A stretch of DNA of 64,000 nt from a virus, in the IMG/VR virus record IMGVR_UViG_3300049489_000321, positions 32,001-96,000 of that record. The stretch is one strand, 5' to 3'. This document shows, piece after piece, positions 31,292 to 48,506 of the stretch (its first letter is position 1; every line of letters begins with the position of its first letter). The position numbers and the translations under genes were made by a program. The notes below the pieces were generated by a model. That model did no database searches. It was not told the origin of the DNA and saw nothing but the letters and a program-made list of their open reading frames with translations.

Positions 31292-32734
31292 ATGAACGGA
31301 GTAAGTCTAGCTCATTACAACAGCCAGCCGGTTAGCGGCTTTGGTACTGCCCCTGCTGCTGATGTACAAGAATTGTCAAAGGCCCTAGAGGCCGGCTACC
31401 AAGTGTCGTCACAGACAGGTGGTGGCGCTCTACGCGTCGAATCTCTAGAGGGTTCTCTAAAGGTTGTCTCGTACACTTCTCACCACATCAAGATGTGGAA
31501 GAAGATCCACAAGAGCCCAGCGTACAGCACGGTTGAAGAGTACAACCAGCTAACTGCGTACGGCTCAAACGCTAACGCCTTCCTACGTGAAGGCGAACTA
31601 GCGCCAACCCAGGACTCAACTTACGCGCGTAGAACCGCGTTCGTTAAGTACATCGGCGTTACCCGCGAGGTAAGTCACCCGATGACCGTTGTCCACCCTG
31701 CTCACGGCGATGTTATCGCTCTGGAAAACCAGAATGGTATTCTCTGGCTGCTACAGCAAGTCGAGAACTCACTATTCCACGGTGATTCAAGCCTAGCGTT
31801 TAGCGGTGAATCAGAGCAGTGGGATGGTCTCGATGCTCTAATTGATCCAACCTCGTACCTCGACCTCGAAGGCGACCCAATGCAGGAAGCCGATATTGAA
31901 GAGGCTACTAACCTACTAGTTGAACAGTTTGCGTACCCCACCGACCTCTGGCTCGGTACCCGCAATGCTTCTGACCTAGTTAAGACTTTCTACCCACGTG
32001 AGCGCGTATCGCTCCCAGCTCCTGAAAATGGTCGCGTTGGTATGAACGTTAGCTCGGTGATGACGCAGGCCGGCGTGATGGAACTCAACCCATCCGTCTT
32101 CCTACGTGAACTACCCTCACCTCCTTCGGCGGCTACTAGTTCTAATGCCCCAGCGCAGCCAGCGTCAATTGCTGGTGTTGCGGCGGCTACTGGTACGGGT
32201 AACTTCACTAAGGGTGCCCCATCCGGTACTGTTTACTACGGCTATGCGGTTACTTCATGTAACCGTTTCGGTGAATCTGCGCCTCGCTTCATTGCAGCTA
32301 ACAACGTCGAAATGACGCAAGCTAACGCGGAGGCTCTAGAGTCTATTGCTCTTACGATCACCAACGCGGCTTCAGTTGGAACTTTCCCACCTGAGTACTT
32401 CCGTATATACCGTACTAACGCTCTGCCGACCGACACACTAACCTCAGACGTTGCCGACTATAGTCTTGTGATGCAGGTTCCTGCTGATTCACAGGCTAAC
32501 AGCGGCGTCACTGCGGCTTCTGACGTTAACTTCCTACTACCATTTACCAGCATTGCGTACATGGGTGAAATGACTGAACAGGTTCTAACCTTCCGTCAGT
32601 TACTACCCCTAATGCGTATGGATCTAGCGGTTACTTCACCAAGCTACCGTTGGATGATTCTAATGTACGGAACTCCAATTCTGTTCGCGAATCGCAAGTG
32701 GCTACGTATTATCAACGTAGGTCGCCTAGAATAG
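31292..32734 (+). CDS. major capsid protein
   Basis: LSKAL.AG, GGALRVESLE, STVEEYNQ, E.E.....DSTY.R, E...F.GD, EQWDGL. Confidence 0.95.
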   Translation: MNGVSLAHYNSQPVSGFGTAPAADVQELSKALEAGYQVSSQTGGGALRVESLEGSLKVVSYTSHHIKMWKKIHKSPAYSTVEEYNQLTAYGSNANAFLREGELAPTQDSTYARRTAFVKYIGVTREVSHPMTVVHPAHGDVIALENQNGILWLLQQVENSLFHGDSSLAFSGESEQWDGLDALIDPTSYLDLEGDPMQEADIEEATNLLVEQFAYPTDLWLGTRNASDLVKTFYPRERVSLPAPENGRVGMNVSSVMTQAGVMELNPSVFLRELPSPPSAATSSNAPAQPASIAGVAAATGTGNFTKGAPSGTVYYGYAVTSCNRFGESAPRFIAANNVEMTQANAEALESIALTITNAASVGTFPPEYFRIYRTNALPTDTLTSDVADYSLVMQVPADSQANSGVTAASDVNFLLPFTSIAYMGEMTEQVLTFRQLLPLMRMDLAVTSPSYRWMILMYGTPILFANRKWLRIINVGRLE

Positions 32735-38990: not shown

Positions 38991-41354
38991 ATGGCTAGAT
39001 CGTTTACATTTAATGGAAAAACTCGCTTAACACCTGGTGCTATAAGTAGAGTTACAACAAATAGTTTAACTGGAAGCGGCGGTACTAACGGCATAGTTTC
39101 ACTAATAGGTGAGGCGGACGGAGGAACGCCAGGAGAAGTACTTACCTTCGATGATCCAGACGAAGCTATCGAGCATTTCGGTTCAGGACCGCTAGCCGAC
39201 GCTGCTAGAATAGTTTTTGATCCATCTGCTGACCCAAGAGTCCCTGGTGGTGCTTTTAGAATCCTTTGTTATAAAGTAAACGCTGCAACACAAGCCAGCA
39301 CCACTCTTCCTTCTGAACAGGTTCTTCTAGGTACTACTCTTGATGGCGACTGCACTTCTACTGTTCTTAACTGGACAGGAGCACCTGTTTTAGCGGTAGA
39401 TTCCCGCATTGGTTCTTGGGTTATGGTGAATGGCGAAAAGCGCAGGATCGTATCGAACACTGCCGACAGCATTACTGTTTCACAGGCTTTCTCTACCACT
39501 CCTGCGTTAAACGACAACTTCTATGTTTTGTCAAACGCGCTAGAGATTACATCAATTGACTACGGCGCGCACACCAATCTTATCCGTGCCGAAGTAGAGC
39601 CTGGCGACGGAGATAACACCAGTGTAGTTACTATTAGTTACGACGAATCTACTGAACAATCAGGTGATTTAGGCGGTAACGCTGTTCTAGAGGTAATGTA
39701 CCTAGGCGGACCAGTACCTGATCAGGGAGATACTGGCCCTGCCGCGCAGGATGTTGTGGTTACGGCTGCGACTACTTCTACCGTATCCGCGACTTTTGTT
39801 GATGCTCCCGAACCTAACCAATACGATGGTTACGTTATTGAATTTGAAAGCGGACTTCGTAGATTAATTGCTAGCCACAATACCAGCACTTCCGCAGTGT
39901 TTACTCTTGATGGGGACACTCCTTTAACTGCTGGTGAAGCTGTAGCTGTAGTTGGCGAAACCATGACTATCCGCGCTGTAACTGCTGCAACTGCCTCAAT
40001 AGTCGGTAGCGGCGGCGTAGCAACAGGTTTTGAGACTGCAATTACGATGGAACCTGTTTCTGTTGCCGATGATCTTGATTTAGATTTTCTCCCAGATGAA
40101 ACATTAGCCGCCTTTATCACGCGCGTAAATGCTGGCGGAAAGTATCTGCTTGCGGCAGGTGAAGGTATTAATGCTAACACTACTTTAATGAAGGAGATGG
40201 ATTTTGGTACTCGCGCTACTGCTGTAGACGTTAGATTTGATCACACAATTGAATATGACGATAGAGGTACCTTCCGTGCTGATCTACAAGCCGTCGTTGA
40301 CTGGATTAACGATAACTCTTCAATCGTTACTTGCGAACGCCATGCAGTTGAAGGGTCGGAGTTACCCGCGTATACTGGTGGATCCGCGTCTATAGTTGAT
40401 GACGTTGCTACCTATTTAATTGGCGGTACTCGTGGTTCTTCAACCAACTCTGATTGGCAAGATGGTTTTGACGCCCTTCTAGAAGTACGGCACCAGCACT
40501 GCGCGCCTTTAATTAGCTATGATTTAGCTGATGATGGGCTGGGTTCAACTGCTACGTTTGCCTCCGTTGCCGCACAGGCCGCTTCTTTCGCGGATGCTGC
40601 TAATAGCGGTATGAATGCCGGTGCCGGTGAACTAGGTGTTTACCTTGGTATGGATGGTACTAAGACCGAACTTCTTGCTTTAACCAACGTCACTAATAAT
40701 CCGAACGTCCACGTTACAGGACAGAAGATGACTGTACTCGATCCCACAGGAACACTAGCGGAGAAGCCGGAATGGTCTGCGGCTGCTAACGCGGCTGGTA
40801 TGCGCGCCGGTATGCCCGATGTAGGCGAGTCACTTACCTTCAAGAAGGCCAAGTGCGTAGGAATTTCAAATGATCCAAGCTGGAGGACCAAGAGCGACAC
40901 GGATCGTAATGCGTTAGTTGAGGGCGGTGTCATGTTCCTAGAAGCGGCTCCAAATGGTGGTTTCCGCTGGGTTCGTGACTTAACTTCATACATTAGCGAT
41001 GACGACAACAATAACTACATTGATGGCGCTGTTCGTGACGCTACGCGTTACATAACATATGACCTTCGTTCTAGCGTCGAAGAACGCTTCACAGGCGAGG
41101 CGAGAGCGGCTACTGTTTCGTCAATCAGATCGTTCGTTTCAGAGAAATTGGACATATACTATAAGGCTGGAATTTTGGTTGACTCAAACGATCCAGAAGA
41201 TCCAAATAGCACCACAGTTATTCCTGGTTGGAGACGCCTAAAGGTTTCTATCGTCGGAAACACTGCAAATATTAAGGCTGAAGTATTTGTTATCAATTCT
41301 GTTGTATTCGAGGGAATTGATATTTCTGTACAAGTCCCGCAACTTGTTGGATAA
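38991..41354 (+). CDS. tail sheath protein
   Basis: FNG....PGA.S, IGEADGG.PG, FGSG.L.DA, ESLTFK, RWVRDLTSY. Confidence 0.9.
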   Translation: MARSFTFNGKTRLTPGAISRVTTNSLTGSGGTNGIVSLIGEADGGTPGEVLTFDDPDEAIEHFGSGPLADAARIVFDPSADPRVPGGAFRILCYKVNAATQASTTLPSEQVLLGTTLDGDCTSTVLNWTGAPVLAVDSRIGSWVMVNGEKRRIVSNTADSITVSQAFSTTPALNDNFYVLSNALEITSIDYGAHTNLIRAEVEPGDGDNTSVVTISYDESTEQSGDLGGNAVLEVMYLGGPVPDQGDTGPAAQDVVVTAATTSTVSATFVDAPEPNQYDGYVIEFESGLRRLIASHNTSTSAVFTLDGDTPLTAGEAVAVVGETMTIRAVTAATASIVGSGGVATGFETAITMEPVSVADDLDLDFLPDETLAAFITRVNAGGKYLLAAGEGINANTTLMKEMDFGTRATAVDVRFDHTIEYDDRGTFRADLQAVVDWINDNSSIVTCERHAVEGSELPAYTGGSASIVDDVATYLIGGTRGSSTNSDWQDGFDALLEVRHQHCAPLISYDLADDGLGSTATFASVAAQAASFADAANSGMNAGAGELGVYLGMDGTKTELLALTNVTNNPNVHVTGQKMTVLDPTGTLAEKPEWSAAANAAGMRAGMPDVGESLTFKKAKCVGISNDPSWRTKSDTDRNALVEGGVMFLEAAPNGGFRWVRDLTSYISDDDNNNYIDGAVRDATRYITYDLRSSVEERFTGEARAATVSSIRSFVSEKLDIYYKAGILVDSNDPEDPNSTTVIPGWRRLKVSIVGNTANIKAEVFVINSVVFEGIDISVQVPQLVG

Positions 41355-41378: not shown

Positions 41379-41837
41379 GTGACAAAGTTACTTGATCCAT
41401 ACTTAGGGATGTTACCTCCTGAGGTTAGGAGAGTACTAGAAAACGACATAGGAGTAAGTGACACAGAACTCAAAGCTTCAATCGAAGAACTTGCAACAAT
41501 AGTTGCTGGCCTTGTAGAAGATGACAACAACGAAGACGCAGATCACGCCGCACTTCGGCAGTTGATACATTTTATAGACAACGGACCCGCAGAGGGCTTC
41601 GCTTCTGCGTATAGAGAAAACACAGGTGGAGCATTTCCTAGTTCTGTAATTTGGTGGACATCACCTGCTAAAGTATCAAAAATAGTTGAGAAAAACATAA
41701 CGTATACAGGAGCATTTCCAACGTCTTTTGAATGGAAGATGTACGACACAGACGGATCAACCGTACTTGCCGTCGTAACAGATACTATAACTTATAGTGG
41801 TGCTTTTGAGTCAAGTAGAACTAGAACAATAGGATAA
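41379..41837 (+). CDS. putative virion accessory protein
   Basis: AAGGAG RBS, GTG start; N-terminus similar to 44458 and 45958. Confidence 0.6.
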   Translation: MTKLLDPYLGMLPPEVRRVLENDIGVSDTELKASIEELATIVAGLVEDDNNEDADHAALRQLIHFIDNGPAEGFASAYRENTGGAFPSSVIWWTSPAKVSKIVEKNITYTGAFPTSFEWKMYDTDGSTVLAVVTDTITYSGAFESSRTRTIG

Positions 41838-41840
41838 ACA

Positions 41841-43298
41841 ATGAGCGACACCAATCCAGTATCAGTGTTACATGACTCTGACGGCGTTCCTATGGCTGTT
41901 GAGGATGGAGGAACCATACCTGCAGACACTAAGGCACTGTTGCTTGCTGGCAATGATGGCGGTACAGCTAATGTGGTTAAGGTAGATGCTGGCGGAAGCG
42001 TGGCGGTAGATGGATCCGGTGTTACACAACCTATCTCGGCGGTCGATCTTCCTCTACCTACAGGCGCTTCAACAGAAGCTACTTTAGCAGCTATTAAAGC
42101 TAAGACAGACAATATAGACGTTGCGCTAAGTACTCGTGCTGTTACCGGTCTTACAGACGCAGAATTACGTTCTTCTCCGGTAGACGTATACGGTCCACTA
42201 ACAGATGTTGAATTAAGAGCAACTCCTGTTGATGTGCTGGGTCCTTTAACAGACGCAGAACTAAGAGCCTCCGCAGTACCTGTGTCTGCAAGTTCGCTTC
42301 CGTTGCCCTCTGGAGCAGCGACAGCCGCTTTACAAACCCAGCCAGGCATAGACATCGGTGATGTTACTGTAAACAATGCTGCTGGGGTAGACGCGGTTAA
42401 TGTACAAGACGGTGGTAATAGTATAACCGTAGACGCACCAGTCGGAACACCAGTAGCAGTTAGGTTGAGTGACGGAAGTGCGTTTTATGACGGAACCAAA
42501 ACAGGACAGCTTCCTTCCGCACTAGTAGGTTCTAGACTAGATGTCAATGCTGGTGCCTGGCTAGGTTCTACTTCACCAACTGTAGGTCAAAAAACAAGCG
42601 CAGACTCAATACCGGTTGTTATATCGTCAGATCAGACCGGTGTTCAAGTACAAGGCACCGCTGCAAATGCCGCCGCTGCATCCGGCAATCCAATACAGGT
42701 TGGAGGCGTGGACTCTTCTGGAAACATACGTAGAGTTCTTACACAGATAGACGGATCTGTTCGTACTAAGGCGACAAATCACGCAACGTTTGCGGTTACA
42801 GCCAGCGATGCTGTGCTTGGTAACAATAAATCAATGATTTCCATAGTTAACGGAGTAGGGTCTACTGTGCTACTAAGATTAAGAGAAGTGTATCTAGTAA
42901 ACACACAAACTGCTAACGTTTCTGGAGTCATAGCTACTCTTGCACTGAGAAGAATAACAGGACACTCTGCCGGTACATCATTGACTCCGCTTCCGCACGA
43001 CACCGCTGATTCTCTAAACGTTAACGTTACTGCTATAACAGGGTCAACCGTAGCAGGAGAGGCGGCTGGGTTTTTAAAACGATGGGCTTTCAGTTCAGAC
43101 GAGTGGGGTTCTGGCGCGGCAGACGTAGAATCTTCTGCGCAAAATAATCAAACGTTGTTTCCTATACTTAACACAACCAACACCTCAATACGACCAGTTA
43201 CACTGCGTGCTGGTGAAGGAATTACCATTAAATGCGAAACGAATACAACAGCAGGACAGTTTGACGTGTTTGTTTTGTTTACACAGGAAAGTGAATAG
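41841..43298 (+). CDS. fibre-like virion protein with GPLTDAELRA repeats
   Basis: VDGSGVTQPIS, three GPLTD.ELRA.PV.V repeats, G/A/S/T/V-rich. Confidence 0.65.
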   Translation: MSDTNPVSVLHDSDGVPMAVEDGGTIPADTKALLLAGNDGGTANVVKVDAGGSVAVDGSGVTQPISAVDLPLPTGASTEATLAAIKAKTDNIDVALSTRAVTGLTDAELRSSPVDVYGPLTDVELRATPVDVLGPLTDAELRASAVPVSASSLPLPSGAATAALQTQPGIDIGDVTVNNAAGVDAVNVQDGGNSITVDAPVGTPVAVRLSDGSAFYDGTKTGQLPSALVGSRLDVNAGAWLGSTSPTVGQKTSADSIPVVISSDQTGVQVQGTAANAAAASGNPIQVGGVDSSGNIRRVLTQIDGSVRTKATNHATFAVTASDAVLGNNKSMISIVNGVGSTVLLRLREVYLVNTQTANVSGVIATLALRRITGHSAGTSLTPLPHDTADSLNVNVTAITGSTVAGEAAGFLKRWAFSSDEWGSGAADVESSAQNNQTLFPILNTTNTSIRPVTLRAGEGITIKCETNTTAGQFDVFVLFTQESE

Positions 43299-43300
43299 TT

Positions 43301-44176
43301 ATGGGCGCTCCAAAGACTTCTGACGGAAAACCGGTAGTTTCTATATTCCCCACAGAGGGATCAAGAAAAACACTAGTATCACACAATTGGTGTGATAAAA
43401 CTACGTGGTATCAAGAATCAACTAGGGTTGTAGACGAAATTCCAGACGCATTGACTCCTGGCGTTACTTATCAACTAGACAACCAGTTTGTGATAGACAC
43501 GTACCATGGAAAGCTATGGGCAGAAGATGATTTGCTTGATGCTGACGGCAACAGCTACAGGGTTTTAGTAGAGGTAGATTCTGGTTCTGGTTTTGAATCT
43601 AAAGAAGAAAGAGATCCACACGTTGGATCAGGTGGTGATTTCACGCTAGATTACGATACCGGTACCATTACATTTGACCCACCCATAGGGTTGACGGATG
43701 ATGTACGCGTAACTTACCACTATGCCGGTTCTTCTGTATTTACGATAAAACCTACTGAGGGCAAAGTACTGCTATTAAAAAGCGCAGAAGTACAATTCTC
43801 GACTGATGTGAATATGTTAGACACTGTTAAGTTTGTGGCTTATGGATACGTTGATGTATTTGCTCCTCAATTATCTTCTGCCAACGGAGGTCCAATACCA
43901 ACTGGAACCAAAATTCCAGTAAACACAACTACTTATAAGACTATGTATGATTTTCAAGCGGAATCTAACGGTGCCATGCCTACGATGCCAACGTTAGGCG
44001 GATCTGGTTGGAGAGGAATACAGCATAGTTTTGTTGTGTTTTCTTGGAACTACGCAGCTCTTTTAGCTTTGTATAGCAACTATGGAATGGAAGTTCGTAT
44101 ATATCTAGAACATGATGATGCTTTTACCGGAGAATTCGCAACAGCTACGGTTTATGCGTTAACTGAGGACGCGTAG
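43301..44176 (+). CDS. putative virion protein
   Basis: DFTLDYDTGTITF...V.VTY.Y beta module. Confidence 0.6.
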   Translation: MGAPKTSDGKPVVSIFPTEGSRKTLVSHNWCDKTTWYQESTRVVDEIPDALTPGVTYQLDNQFVIDTYHGKLWAEDDLLDADGNSYRVLVEVDSGSGFESKEERDPHVGSGGDFTLDYDTGTITFDPPIGLTDDVRVTYHYAGSSVFTIKPTEGKVLLLKSAEVQFSTDVNMLDTVKFVAYGYVDVFAPQLSSANGGPIPTGTKIPVNTTTYKTMYDFQAESNGAMPTMPTLGGSGWRGIQHSFVVFSWNYAALLALYSNYGMEVRIYLEHDDAFTGEFATATVYALTEDA

Positions 44177-44184
44177 TAACAACG

Positions 44185-44409
44185 ATGAGCCAAACATTAG
44201 TAACTATTTTTATGATTGCGTCATTGATAATTATTTCTGGCGTTGATGTTTACTTAGCCAACGACAATGTTAAAGGAAATACATACTCAGCAAAGATACG
44301 TGCTTGGAGTAGAATTTTTCCACCTTTAAAAATAGGAATATGTGTGTTTTTTGGAATGTTACTTGCCCATTGGTATTGGACTGTGGTAGAATACGTCAAC
44401 TGTAAATAA
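44185..44409 (+). CDS. two-TM membrane protein (holin-like)
   Basis: Two hydrophobic helices. Confidence 0.5.
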   Translation: MSQTLVTIFMIASLIIISGVDVYLANDNVKGNTYSAKIRAWSRIFPPLKIGICVFFGMLLAHWYWTVVEYVNCK

Positions 44410-44420
44410 TTTATCAACAA

Positions 44421-44438
44421 TATATATATATATATATA
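44421..44438. repeat. (TA)9 microsatellite immediately before RBS of 44458
   Basis: tatatatatatatatata-ggagaaac. Confidence 0.9.
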
Positions 44439-44457
44439 GGAGAAACAGACAAAAAAA

Positions 44458-45753
44458 ATGGATATAACTCAATATTTTAGCGGTATGCCAGTAGAGGCTA
44501 AAAACGCTATACAAAAAGAGCTAGAAAGTACAGACGATGTATGGCCTGTGTTCGTTTTCCGTCCTGGAGACCCAGACGGAACTAGACAAAACGTTTATAC
44601 ATCGTGGACTGAGCTAATGTCTGCTTTAGACGCAACCCGCGAGAATGGCATACGGTATTTACAGTTTGACTTTGGATACACTGGCGGCACGTTTGACGTA
44701 CCTGCTGGAACTTGGGACTTTACTGATGTAAAGTGGACTGACACTATGCGGCGTGGTAACGGTGGGTTATTTGCCTTTACAGGCGGAATTTTCCTCGGTG
44801 ATGGCGTAATAATCGAAAACCTAGCATTTATAGAACTTCATGCCACAGACGTAATCTGCACCAGTGAGACAACGGTGCCTATGACATTTAACGAGACTTG
44901 GCATACTATATGTCTTGGCGGTTCGCAGACGTGGCTGTATTCGCTAACTTCTGTGCCGCTCATCCGTCTTGGTGCCACGTTTTGTCCGCCCATTACGGTG
45001 GAGAACCCAGAAGGCGCCTTCCCGCTGTACGAATCGTCGTTTCTAGGTACAGCAGGTTTGACGACGCTAGGATCATTGTACGCAGGGTACGACTACGGCA
45101 CACCTACCGTAGACCTGATGGGTCGTGGTGTTGGTTTAGTGTGTAACTGGGAACGCAACACATTCGTAAACTCGTGCCCATATCCTTCGGGAGCATACAT
45201 AGAGTCAATCAACTCTATCCCAAGTTTCGGCGCAGGTTCATTTGGTGACCCTTTTTCTGAAACTAATACGCAAGGAAATAACTACGATCTATCCGCTACT
45301 CTAGACGTGTCTATGGTCACAATCAGCGTAGCACGGTACGCCTACGCGTCAGGCTGGCAGACAGCTCCGGATCGCGGCATGCCGATCACACCTACACGTT
45401 GGCCGGACGGGTTCCACCCTCCGTACGGCGCTGTAACCAATTGTGATCCAACCACAGGACCGGTTGACGTGTACTTGGAGGGAGCTTATCCTAACTTCGG
45501 TTCTCAGTATCTAATAGCTGATTCAGTTGGAACATGTGGTGTTGGTAACGAGATCCGGATACATGCCAAACCTGGTGAGTTGATCAATGGAGTTAATCCG
45601 TACGTACTTGATACGCCATACGGGGCTGCCATGTTGGTGTCGGTTCCTGACGGTCCCGGTGCTTATGAGCCTGTAAAGGGAGACCCGGTTGGAACGTACC
45701 CAATTAAAAACACTATAATCGGACAATGGATTGTGCTTAAGGGAGGCGCGTAA
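44458..45753 (+). CDS. putative fibre/receptor-binding-like protein, paralog A
   Basis: Colinear with 45958; C-term D.T.GPV.V.L...D..G......I.....ING module typical of fibre/baseplate proteins. Confidence 0.65.
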   Translation: MDITQYFSGMPVEAKNAIQKELESTDDVWPVFVFRPGDPDGTRQNVYTSWTELMSALDATRENGIRYLQFDFGYTGGTFDVPAGTWDFTDVKWTDTMRRGNGGLFAFTGGIFLGDGVIIENLAFIELHATDVICTSETTVPMTFNETWHTICLGGSQTWLYSLTSVPLIRLGATFCPPITVENPEGAFPLYESSFLGTAGLTTLGSLYAGYDYGTPTVDLMGRGVGLVCNWERNTFVNSCPYPSGAYIESINSIPSFGAGSFGDPFSETNTQGNNYDLSATLDVSMVTISVARYAYASGWQTAPDRGMPITPTRWPDGFHPPYGAVTNCDPTTGPVDVYLEGAYPNFGSQYLIADSVGTCGVGNEIRIHAKPGELINGVNPYVLDTPYGAAMLVSVPDGPGAYEPVKGDPVGTYPIKNTIIGQWIVLKGGA

Positions 45754-45755
45754 TT

Positions 45756-45905
45756 ATGCCTACAATTAAGGAAAATATTACGGCTGCTGTTGTTGCGTTA
45801 AATACTGCAAAACGCACACATGGACAAGACAGTAAAGAAGCTAATGAAGCGCGCCTAGTATTGACTAATTTAATAAAACAAGCTAGAGAAGCGACTGAGA
45901 ACTAG
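45756..45905 (+). CDS. 49-aa helical hairpin peptide, family member 1 (not in ORF track)
   Basis: MPTIKENITAAVVALNTAKRTHGQDSKEANEARLVLTNLIKQAREATEN; GGAGG RBS. Confidence 0.75.
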   Translation: MPTIKENITAAVVALNTAKRTHGQDSKEANEARLVLTNLIKQAREATEN

Positions 45906-45957
45906 TGTATTTGTATCATTATATACAATAAATATACAACAAAGGATAAACAAACAA

Positions 45958-47262
45958 ATGGATATATCTCAATATTTTAGTGGAATGCCCGATGAAATTA
46001 AAAACGCATTTCAAGCAGAACTAGACAGCGCAGACACCTTGTGGTCTGTGTTCGTCTTCCGTCCTAGCGATCCAGGCGGTCAGCGCCAGAACGTGTACAC
46101 TTCTTGGACTGACCTAATGGCTGCTCTAGACGAGACACGCGAGAACGGCATTCGCCACCTTCAGTGGGACCTGTCTTTCCACGACAACTCATTCGATATT
46201 CCACCCGGTACGTGGAACTTCACTGATGTTAAATGGACTGACACCATGCGTAAGGGCAGAGGCGGTCTGTTCAATGCGACCCAGAGCATATTTGCTGGTG
46301 ACGATGTAATCATTGAAAATTTGTCGTATGTAGAGTTTGACGGATCTGAATTAGTCTGTACCAGTGAAACAACGGTTCCAATGACGTTCAGTCAGGATTG
46401 GCACCAGCTTTGGATAGGTGGCTGTTCAGGACAAATGTACTCGGTTTCATCTAAGCCACTCATTCGTCTTGGTGCCACGCTATGTCCTCCTATTTCGGAA
46501 GAAGATCCAGGTGGTGCATTCTTCCTCTACGAGTCAGCGATTATGGGCACTACTGGATTATCAACGTTTGGTAGCGTGTATTCGGGATACGACTTTACAA
46601 CTCCCGCTGTGGACTTAATGGGACGAGGCATTGGTCTCGTGTGTAACTGGGAGCGTAATATGTTCATGAATTCATGCACATATGCTTCTGGTGCGTACAT
46701 TGAGGCGTATATGACAGTGCCTAGCTTTGGCGCTGGATCGTTTGGTCCTCTGCCCACCGACGACTTTAAGTCGGGCAACGACCACAACTACGCTTCTACC
46801 TTGGATGTGTCGTTAGTTACGTTTAACCTCTCACGGTACTGCTACGCGGCTGGGTTCTCTACTCGACCTGACCTAGCTACCCCGGTTAATCCAACCAAGT
46901 GGCCTTTACCAAACGGATTTCACGTCGGGTACGGATCAGTAACTAACTGTGATACTACGGATGGTCCGCTAGACGTGTTTCTCCCGCTTGCTAATCCCAA
47001 CTTCGGTGCTCAGGTGCTGATTGTTGACTCGGTTGGCGCTGCTGGTGTTGGTAATGAGATCATTATTCACGCTAGAGCCGGTGAAACGATTAACGGCGCC
47101 GCGACGTACACCATTGACACTGCGCGAGGATCTGTTATGTTGGTGTCTGTTGCTGAAGGCGAAGCTGGTATCTACGAACCGTTGGCGTGGGGCGAGGGTG
47201 GAACCTACCCCGTCAAGAACCCCATCGTAGGACAGTGGATTATTGCATCAAAGGTAGTTTAA
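45958..47262 (+). CDS. putative fibre/receptor-binding-like protein, paralog B
   Basis: Extensive identity with 44458 (e.g. FTDVKWTDTMR, PLIRLGAT, VCNWERN). Confidence 0.65.
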   Translation: MDISQYFSGMPDEIKNAFQAELDSADTLWSVFVFRPSDPGGQRQNVYTSWTDLMAALDETRENGIRHLQWDLSFHDNSFDIPPGTWNFTDVKWTDTMRKGRGGLFNATQSIFAGDDVIIENLSYVEFDGSELVCTSETTVPMTFSQDWHQLWIGGCSGQMYSVSSKPLIRLGATLCPPISEEDPGGAFFLYESAIMGTTGLSTFGSVYSGYDFTTPAVDLMGRGIGLVCNWERNMFMNSCTYASGAYIEAYMTVPSFGAGSFGPLPTDDFKSGNDHNYASTLDVSLVTFNLSRYCYAAGFSTRPDLATPVNPTKWPLPNGFHVGYGSVTNCDTTDGPLDVFLPLANPNFGAQVLIVDSVGAAGVGNEIIIHARAGETINGAATYTIDTARGSVMLVSVAEGEAGIYEPLAWGEGGTYPVKNPIVGQWIIASKVV

Positions 47263-47264
47263 TC

Positions 47265-47414
47265 ATGGCACTTAAAGAAGACATACAAGCAGCTACTGCT
47301 GCTCTGAGAGCGGCTAAGCAGGCTCACGGGCACGATAGTCCTGAGGCGGTTGCAGCGAGACTTGCGTTAGCTGCTCTAATTCAACAAGCCAAGGAAATAA
47401 AGAATGAGCAGTAA
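47265..47414 (+). CDS. 49-aa helical hairpin peptide, family member 2
   Basis: MALKEDIQAATAALRAAKQAHGHDSPEAVAARLALAALIQQAKEIKNEQ. Confidence 0.75.
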   Translation: MALKEDIQAATAALRAAKQAHGHDSPEAVAARLALAALIQQAKEIKNEQ

Positions 47415-47580
47415 ACCGTTAGACGATCGTTCTATGACCGCTTTTCGTGAATTTGTAGAAGCGCAAAAGATGTACGGTGCGCAGAGCCGACCGGCGTTGT
47501 TAGCTTTAAAAAAACTACGTAAAGCAATAGGAACGCATAAAGAACCGCCACCAGGCATGATTCAAGTCGGCGGCGTATAG
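47404..47580 (+). CDS. 58-aa peptide, possible diverged family member
   Basis: MSSKPLDDRSMTAFREFVEAQKMYGAQSRPALLALKKLRKAIG...; AAGGA RBS. Confidence 0.55.
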   Translation: MSSKPLDDRSMTAFREFVEAQKMYGAQSRPALLALKKLRKAIGTHKEPPPGMIQVGGV

Positions 47581-47649
47581 AAATTGCGTAGTGTTATTGG
47601 TTTCTTATTTTATTAAAATAATAAAAAAGAATCGGAGATTAAACTAAAA

Positions 47650-47799
47650 ATGAGCATTCCTAGTAAAGAAGAAGTTGAAGCAGCTGTTGCTGCACTTAGA
47701 TCTGCTAAGCAGGAGCATGGACACGACAGTCAGCAGGCCGCCGCTGCCAGAGCAGCGCTCGCTGCATTATTGCAGAGTGCGTCTGATAGACGCCAATAG
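47650..47799 (+). CDS. 49-aa helical hairpin peptide, family member 3 (not in ORF track)
   Basis: MSIPSKEEVEAAVAALRSAKQEHGHDSQQAAAARAALAALLQSASDRRQ; GGAG upstream. Confidence 0.75.
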   Translation: MSIPSKEEVEAAVAALRSAKQEHGHDSQQAAAARAALAALLQSASDRRQ

Positions 47800-47854
47800 T
47801 GTCTATAGTTTGATAGTTAAATAACTAACTCATCTACCAACGGTAGAAGAAGTC

Positions 47855-47895
47855 CAAGGGTCGCCTATAATAAAATAGGCGGCTCTTGTTTTTTT
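47855..47895 (+). terminator. intrinsic terminator ending the insert
   Basis: CAAGGGTCGCCTAT-loop-ATAGGCGGCTCTTG plus T7. Confidence 0.85.
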
Positions 47896-47896
47896 A

Positions 47897-47925
47897 TTGA
47901 CAATAGTTGTATATTTTGGTATATT
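47897..47925 (+). promoter_or_regulatory. sigma70-type promoter of tail tube operon
   Basis: TTGACA-17-(TGG)TATATT. Confidence 0.75.
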
Positions 47926-47991
47926 AATGGATAGCAAACACCAATAGGTGGCTTAGACTGGCTTTTAGGCGTTTCTAAGATGCGATTATTT

Positions 47992-48029
47992 AAGGCGATT
48001 TGGATATTCCAAGTCGCTTTTTTGTTTTT
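47992..48029 (+). terminator. terminator inside leader of tail tube gene
   Basis: AAGGCGATTTGGA-TAT-TCCAAGTCGCTTT plus TTTGTTTTT. Confidence 0.7.
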
Positions 48030-48080
48030 AAATGTACGTTGTTTGTTGTTACCAAATAAGTTAAGGAGAAAACAAAGACA

Positions 48081-48506
48081 ATGGCTGCTCAGACATTTAG
48101 TGGCGCTCGCGCCAGAGTACTGATTGATGGCAAAATCATTGGCTTCTGTGGCGGGTTATCCGGTTCAGAAAGCATTGATTATGAACCTGTAGACGTACTA
48201 AATCTATTAGAGGTAAAGGAATTTGTGCCGGTTGCGTATCGCGCGACACTATCAGCGCAGATGTTCCGTATTATTGGCAACTCTATCAAGAAGCAAGGTA
48301 TAATGCCTCGTGGTAACGACTTGGACATCCTAACAGCAGGCGACCTAACTGTCATGGTTGAAGACAAACTAAATCCAGGCCAGATTGCCGCGCAGTTTAC
48401 TGGTGTTAAATGCCAGGAGCATTCTTTCGATATTACTGCCAGAGGACTGGTGTCAGAGAACGTCAATTTCGTGGCGATTAGAGTGAAGGACGAGAGCGAA
48501 CTTTAA
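48081..48506 (+). CDS. tail tube protein
   Basis: 141 aa; SGA...V.IDGK.IG...E...E.VP..Y; AAGGAG RBS; upstream of chaperone and tape measure. Confidence 0.8.
   Translation: MAAQTFSGARARVLIDGKIIGFCGGLSGSESIDYEPVDVLNLLEVKEFVPVAYRATLSAQMFRIIGNSIKKQGIMPRGNDLDILTAGDLTVMVEDKLNPGQIAAQFTGVKCQEHSFDITARGLVSENVNFVAIRVKDESEL

Follow-up and report, generated by a model that had tools for sequence, protein, structure and literature searches.

Hairpin microproteins encoded behind paralogous tailspike-like genes of a sediment phage: predicted cognate partners of their spikes

Why would a phage place a gene of 49 amino acids directly behind each of two large tail genes? The question is raised by a locus in the virus record IMGVR_UViG_3300049489_000321, an IMG/VR contig from a freshwater sediment metagenome, of which positions 32,001 to 96,000 (64,000 nucleotides, hereafter the window) were analyzed. 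An earlier note, made from the sequence alone, had described two colinear paralogs of about 430 amino acids (L1 and L2), each followed after 2 nt by a 49-amino-acid open reading frame (ORF; p1 and p2), then a 58-amino-acid ORF (p58) and a third 49-amino-acid ORF (p3), and had proposed a cognate mini-partner for each large, fibre-like protein. The paralogs, the three 49-residue ORFs and the motif that these share were all recovered as described. On the in silico evidence as a whole, the hairpin peptide is very probably a cognate binding partner of the spike encoded ahead of it, the three partner roles weighed below being taken together.

The hairpin peptides and the large proteins

The three peptides are 42–62% identical in pairwise comparisons and match one another with E-values of 1e-10 to 1e-25, far beyond chance. 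The whole 147.5-kb record was searched and holds two copies of the large gene and three detectable peptides, with no further peptide copy. No stop codon interrupts p1 to p3, the related peptide P0008 or the peptide of contig L004 described below. Nonsynonymous (dN) and synonymous (dS) divergence between p2 and p3 amount to 0.34 and 1.48, a dN/dS of about 0.23; in comparisons of p1 with the other peptides, synonymous substitution has reached saturation. Judged from these sequences, the peptides are real coding genes under purifying selection. The saturation also means that the copies are old and do not stem from a recent expansion; the same saturation is found between L1 and L2, and the idea of an expanding module is not supported.

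The peptides invariably have small residues along one face of either helix and the HG.DS turn, and p1 is modeled in complex with L1 (see below) with a predicted local distance difference test (pLDDT) score of at least 84. The fold is therefore most simply an antiparallel alpha-hairpin and not a DNA-binding helix-turn-helix, so that of the term "helix-turn-helix hairpin", used previously for these peptides, the hairpin stands and the rest is misleading. The peptides gave no PHROG match at E≤0.01 and only sub-threshold, chance-level Pfam matches at E≤10; the protein atlas held no usable match, and a profile search of PDB sequences returned chance matches only, without any CP12 chain. As far as these searches reach, the microprotein family appears to be undescribed.

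CP12 (PF02672) was considered as a family assignment and rejected. The N-terminal half of CP12 is likewise an Ala-rich helical hairpin, and p2 and p3 give weak Pfam matches to it (19.2–19.3 bits, E 0.002). However, the three peptides score 19.3, 19.2 and 13.4 bits, short of the gathering threshold of 22.7 bits, and no match is given by the L004 peptide or P0008. CP12 proteins are defined by conserved cysteine pairs and an AWD_VEEL core; no peptide copy contains a cysteine or this core, and the C-terminal half of CP12 is lacking as well.

Aligned end to end, L1 and L2 share 62% identity and are colinear, with three gaps. Close relatives are very rare, since a search of 5.8 billion clusters yielded, besides the paralog, only P0002, P0004 and P0010; the first two carry other domains at the N-terminus where L1 and L2 have a short tag. 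When 1.84 billion representatives were searched with a profile, 249 matched at E≤1e-3, most of which share with L1 an N-module (residues ~30–95), a C-module (~320–400) or both, the middle being variable where both are present. The N-termini of these relatives consist of collagen repeats, T4_gp9_10_N, lipoprotein signals or the tag, and a Pfam scan of 50 of them found T4_gp9_10_N in seven and collagen repeats in five. L1 and L2 themselves match neither T4_gp9_10_C nor T4_gp9_10_N. As to the beta-helix, no Pfam family at E≤0.01 was found for L1, L2 or the 50 relatives, Beta_helix, Pect-lyase_RHGA_epim and NosD included, and only language-model leads, at 0.88, pointed to a beta-helix sequence family. 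Searches with the large protein and the peptide returned nothing from INPHARED phages, IMG/VR or GTDB genome contigs.

The AlphaFold2 model of L1 (pLDDT 78, predicted template modeling score 0.76) comprises N-terminal helices, a beta-solenoid and a C-terminal beta-sandwich. With VIA-align, the sandwich (residues 293–431) matched a KP1 baseplate protein (9f4a, Z 13.3) and the N-terminus of CBA120 TSP4 (7rej, Z 13.2), as well as 7rfv (Z 12.5), with root-mean-square deviations (rmsd) of 2.1–2.5 over 102–108 residues. T4 gp9 (1qex) was matched by the L1 model in Foldseek (E 9e-4), and residues 321–395 of L2 match phrog_967, annotated as baseplate wedge tail fiber connector (E 4.6e-6). The body of L1 resembles pectin methylesterase (PME; residues 28–349, Z 9.5, 204 aligned residues, rmsd 4.3), and matches to PME, pectate lyases and many phage tailspikes, among them CBA120 TSP1, phiAB6 and Pam1, extend over ~200 residues at Z 8–9.5 and rmsd of ~4–5 Å, modestly above the background of Z 7–8 stated for the method. 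According to these models, L1 and L2 are small tailspike-like proteins with a right-handed beta-helix and a T4 gp9/gp10-like C-terminal domain, which, together with the collagen repeats and T4_gp9_10_N of the relatives, agrees with the fibre-like nature first assigned to them. In T4 gp9/gp10 and the N-terminal domains of CBA120 TSP4, the module matched by the C-terminal 135 residues of L1 is a baseplate-attached branching module; here it lies C-terminal to a beta-helix, whereas there it is part of a baseplate wedge protein.

Linkage of hairpin and spike and their predicted complex

Both large genes end in TAA with the ATG of the small gene 2 nt beyond, and these gaps, together with the ribosome-binding sites, point to translational coupling in both cassettes. 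A Shine-Dalgarno-like purine run is visible by eye 7–12 nt ahead of all four small ORFs. Relative to their large gene, p1 and p2 are in the -1 frame because the TAAnnATG spacing is inherited. A programmed frameshift fusion was considered and discarded, the frame ahead of p1 being open for just five codons, and no Rfam family was found in 44000–48200 that would indicate an RNA element.

Outside this genome, a metagenome scan yielded one contig, L004, of 1.9 kb and high GC content, whose large protein is 51% identical to L1. On it, the end of a family gene (...VTDGYGNWIVV*) is followed after 53 nt by a 53-amino-acid hairpin ORF and, after a further 86 nt, by a P0004-like gene. The small ORF is preceded by AGGAG 7 nt upstream, carries the motif AAQAHGPTSEQAKAA and was the top non-self match of the peptide hidden Markov model (HMM) among 11,225 frames (E 0.002). 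As L004 shows the same arrangement at high GC content, the order large gene, hairpin, large gene appears to have been kept across a large compositional distance. Absence also goes together: among five related phages searched whole, the large family is missing in four and the fifth has a short match of 43 positions (E 3e-5), and the peptide is missing from all five at E≤0.01.

The predicted complex of L1 and p1 reached ipSAE scores of 0.81, 0.74 and 0.79, against 0.00 in all three controls. The 0.79 mark was attained by 58 of 80 solved complexes and by 2 of 110 mismatched pairs, which is a rough guide since custom alignments were used here. At least 88% of the contacts are common to the runs, which contain 65–80 contacts and engage both helices of p1. 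Residues 4–45 of the peptide are placed on L1 residues 75–83, 106–115, 131–137, 163–164 and 207–214, that is, along one sheet over about five rungs.

This predicted surface coincides with a variable part of the spike. The 25 interface positions are 36% identical between L1 and L2, compared with 65% for the rest of residues 30–299 (Fisher p=0.008), and a comparison with P0004 shows the same trend (32% versus 53%, p=0.06). As no other part of the spike diverges faster than the face predicted to be bound, each hairpin seems to be matched to its own spike. At one contact of the model, L1 residues G76-G77, also present in P0002 and replaced by D-N in L2, face T37 of p1; this position is T in p1 and P0008 and Ala in p2 and p3, and P0008 has the p1-type residues N16, Q24 and N30 as well. 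In this predicted model, and with few sequences, the residue pairing looks like matched hairpin-spike types. Taken together, the coupling, the order on L004, the complex score of 0.79 against 0.00 and the fast-diverging interface support, in silico, the cognate mini-partner that had been proposed for each large protein.

Weighing the possible roles

Accessory genes behind receptor-binding protein genes are not new. In the Tfa (Mu), gp38 (T4) and cyanophage Pam3 gp24-gp25 cassettes, an accessory gene likewise lies directly downstream of the gene for a trimeric fibre or spike, and the two products are expected to form a stoichiometric complex. The hairpin ORFs adjoin their spike gene in the same manner, at 2 nt here and at 53 nt in L004. 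What is new is a hairpin partner that has no sequence relation to these proteins and is predicted to bind side-on. Tfa-type proteins are two-domain proteins of ~160–200 amino acids that carry a trimerising helical bundle of their own and grip the distal tip, whereas here a single hairpin of 49 amino acids is predicted to lie against the side. T4 gp57A, a purely helical protein of 79 amino acids, is required for the folding of trimeric fibres. It is not encoded beside its client genes, serves several fibres and has no detected sequence similarity to the hairpins, which by contrast appear to be pair-specific. Pam3 gp25 has 162 amino acids in two domains, and this chaperone covers the receptor-binding loops and is missing from virions (PMC9608196).

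We propose that the hairpin would be a transient, dedicated assembly helper or shield of its own spike, the most likely of the roles weighed here, for which the case stands about evenly balanced. L1 and L2 would be anciently duplicated forms of one small tailspike-like virion protein, probably a trimer, docked on the tail by the N-terminal helical tag, with the beta-helix as spike body and the gp9/gp10-type beta-sandwich as C-terminus. During folding and trimerisation in the cell, the hairpin, predicted to lie lengthwise along one beta-helix sheet of its own spike, would shield a flat face rich in aromatic residues and glycine, which probably binds glycans, and it would depart before or at virion attachment. 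A literature search found no paper joining tailspike, helical hairpin and chaperone.

The same complex prediction would also suit a hairpin that stays on the beta-helix in the virion as a permanent spike subunit, where it could form or tune the receptor surface or bridge adjacent spikes. A stable complex would fit with the large predicted interface and with coupled synthesis at 1:1, and the extra copies p3 and p58 could supply alternative surfaces; a limited literature search, however, found no solved tailspike structure with a bound hairpin, and we regard a permanent subunit as rather unlikely.

Somewhat more doubtful is an inhibitor or safety cap, in which the hairpin would fill the putative substrate groove of an active beta-helix (depolymerase or esterase) and keep it silent inside the cell or until the host is met, in the manner of the pectin methylesterase inhibitor (PMEI). 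The best whole-body fold matches of L1 are pectin methylesterases, including the one in the PME-PMEI complex 1xg2 (Z 9.2–9.5), and the hairpin is predicted on a variable, aromatic-rich face. The helical PMEI protein sits over the beta-helix cleft in a 1:1 complex (PMC8990755), and it covers one face of a right-handed beta-helix as predicted here; it is nevertheless a four-helix bundle of ~150 amino acids with disulfides, eukaryotic and extracellular, without homology to the hairpins. No catalytic residues were identified in the spikes, which match no Pfam family of beta-helix enzymes, and no described phage that inhibits its own tailspike was found. It is doubtful in similar measure that the hairpins form a new class of microproteins, specificity-matched tailspike caps that would co-evolve with the variable, receptor- or substrate-binding face of their own spike and mask it until the right moment, be it as inhibitors or as removable safety caps, with p3 and p58, in this joint proposal, as a reservoir for re-pairing spikes and caps.

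Least probable, in our judgment, are independent small ORFs (regulators, CP12-like metabolic modulators or anti-defence peptides) that merely travel with the spikes: p3 and p58 without a large gene, the weak CP12 matches of p2 and p3 and the lack of any fused large-peptide protein would fit them, but those matches stay below the gathering score and are missing in the L004 peptide and P0008. Linkage is favoured by the 2-nt coupling and by the gene order kept on L004, and the predicted complex holds up against its controls.

Several points weigh against a dedicated helper. The beta-helices of known tailspikes do not usually need a separate chaperone to fold, and the known fibre chaperones Tfa and gp38 grip the distal tip instead of lying against a beta-helix. 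Two spikes stand against three or four hairpin genes, and ahead of p3 there is no spike gene at all. The predicted binding comes from one structure predictor and a shallow custom alignment of the peptide (five rows). The variable face may be nothing more than the receptor face and would then diverge with or without a bound peptide. Co-occurrence beyond this genome consists of the single 1.9-kb contig, with a weak HMM score of 17.5 bits. No fused large-plus-peptide protein was found among longer proteins, which is weak evidence. Finally, distant beta-helix relatives in IMG/VR (L038, L039 and L041) precede a gene of ~320 amino acids and not a hairpin, so the hairpin partner would be confined to a narrow subfamily. 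The protein of ~320–333 amino acids encoded behind these distant relatives is itself conserved, with a W-rich N-terminus and the end ..PW..G..P (L038:3629-4630, minus strand; L039:6609-7580; L041:7601-8557), and may be a different partner or a tip protein.

Layout of the locus and the sheath-tube slot

The features of the locus are collected below. p2 starts at an internal ATG of a listed GTG ORF that begins at 47187, and the start of p58 overlaps the end of p2 by 11 nt.

Table. Features of the spike-hairpin locus and its surroundings, in window coordinates
Feature	Coordinates	Strand	Description
Accessory block	41379-48080	+	6.7 kb, between sheath (38991-41354) and tube (48081-48506) genes
g152	41379-41837	+	First gene past the sheath gene; N-terminal tag as in L1/L2
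L1	44458-45753	+	431-aa tailspike-like protein: tag residues 1-30, right-handed beta-helix ~28-292, gp9/gp10-like beta-sandwich ~293-431 (predicted)
p1	45756-45905	+	49-aa alpha-hairpin microprotein (predicted); start 2 nt past L1 stop; GGAGG 8 nt upstream
L2	45958-47262	+	434-aa paralog of L1
p2	47265-47414	+	49-aa alpha-hairpin microprotein (predicted); start 2 nt past L2 stop
p58	47404-47580	+	58-aa ORF; may be a hairpin copy that has diverged strongly, with disordered tail; no demonstrable homology
p3	47650-47799	+	Third 49-aa hairpin microprotein (predicted); own GGAG ribosome-binding site; no large gene ahead
Terminator-like hairpin	47855-47888, T-run to 47898	+	14 pairs; closes the block
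Sigma-70-like promoter	47897-47925	+	TTGACA-17-TATATT, TG extended; ahead of the tube gene; consensus match only

p58 had been taken for a diverged copy of the peptides. Its single-sequence AlphaFold2 model shows a helix at residues 8–24, a turn and a helix at 29–42, with pLDDT above 90 over residues 11–40, a predicted hairpin of the same size as those of the family with the turn YGAQS where the family has HGxDS. Fold and position agree with the assignment; homology itself could not be detected, the peptide HMM giving E>10 and hhalign a probability of 0.4%. By eye, the C-terminal tail of p58 (..PPPGMIQVGGV*, 47540-47580) loosely resembles the end of L1 (..IGQWIVLKGGA*, 45720-45753). Speculatively, p58 might be the deletion relic of a third large gene that once stood ahead of p3.

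The GC content of L1 and L2 is 49–50% against a window mean of 42%. With the genes for sheath, the 485-amino-acid protein and tube at 47–48%, the contrast is modest, and the impression that the large genes are richer in GC than their flanks is right only with respect to the window mean. In a sediment metatranscriptome (X2), five short contigs fall within L1 and L2 and none over the peptides, where DNA carry-over is possible and uncovered parts prove nothing; four of the five are identical to L1 or L2, and the fifth, of 151 nt, differs at nine bases.

Besides sheath and tube-like (phrog_985) genes, the window encodes a portal and a tape-measure-like protein. In 29 related phages from IMG/VR, the tube protein is 55–67% and the sheath protein 33–45% identical to those encoded here. 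The gap between the two genes is 0.5–1.8 kb in the relatives that have both on the retrieved stretch, versus 6.7 kb here, and the genes of the block have no tblastn match in the 29 phages. Since the gap is short and the block genes are unmatched in the relatives, the sheath-tube gap appears to be a hypervariable cargo slot. The notion of an exchangeable module for the spike and its peptide holds in this form only, as variation of the whole slot among related phages.

The cargo of the slot differs by phage and includes tag-bearing proteins of 125–190 amino acids, a family of 407–532 amino acids (MPALPTD..YLKRVRD) and one of 228–365 amino acids (MAISIPA..D.QL.AL). An N-terminal tag of ~30 residues, Y[LF]..[ML]P.E...A[LF]..E[LI], is found in L1, L2, g152 and several slot genes of relatives (window 41379-41470, 44458-44547 and 45958-46047; L006:9205; L011:6754; P0015, P0021 and P0137). 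The tag HMM matches the N-termini of P0137 (E 1e-4) and P0021 (E 0.002), neither of which was used in building it. The slot proteins that it heads are otherwise unrelated. In Pam3, an N-terminal helical bundle docks the fibre to the baseplate (PMC9608196), and by analogy the tag probably serves tail appendages as a shared docking module.

Other genes of the block and of related slots were noted in passing. The 485-amino-acid protein (41841-43298) contains tandem LTD[AV]ELR..PVDV.GP repeats without Pfam or PHROG match, and may be another fibre-like member of the block; the next gene, of 291 amino acids (43301-44176), is an orphan too. Directly upstream of L1, within the structural block, lies a hydrophobic ORF of 74 amino acids (44185-44409) with apparently two membrane-spanning stretches, followed by an (AT)n run at 44412-44449. 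Small slot ORFs of three relatives carry a DnaJ J-domain-like motif, HPDHNGG or HPDRGG (L007:7327-7581, L011:6357-6740, L028:9437-9763).

Receptor-binding proteins set the host range of phages. Phage engineering is aimed mainly at them, and many require an accessory protein for their production. If the partnership proposed here is true, the 49-residue hairpin would be the smallest dedicated partner described for a receptor-binding protein, and it would bind side-on to the variable face, unlike the known chaperones that grip the tip. Should the hairpin prove to be a cap, it would be the first phage-encoded protein regulator of the phage's own receptor-binding enzyme. The locus also indicates that ORFs of 49 amino acids, which are dropped by default ORF length cut-offs, can be integral to phage tail modules. 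For this group of phages, which has no cultured member, the tag common to proteins of the hypervariable slot between sheath and tube hints at a plug-in site where tail appendages attach.

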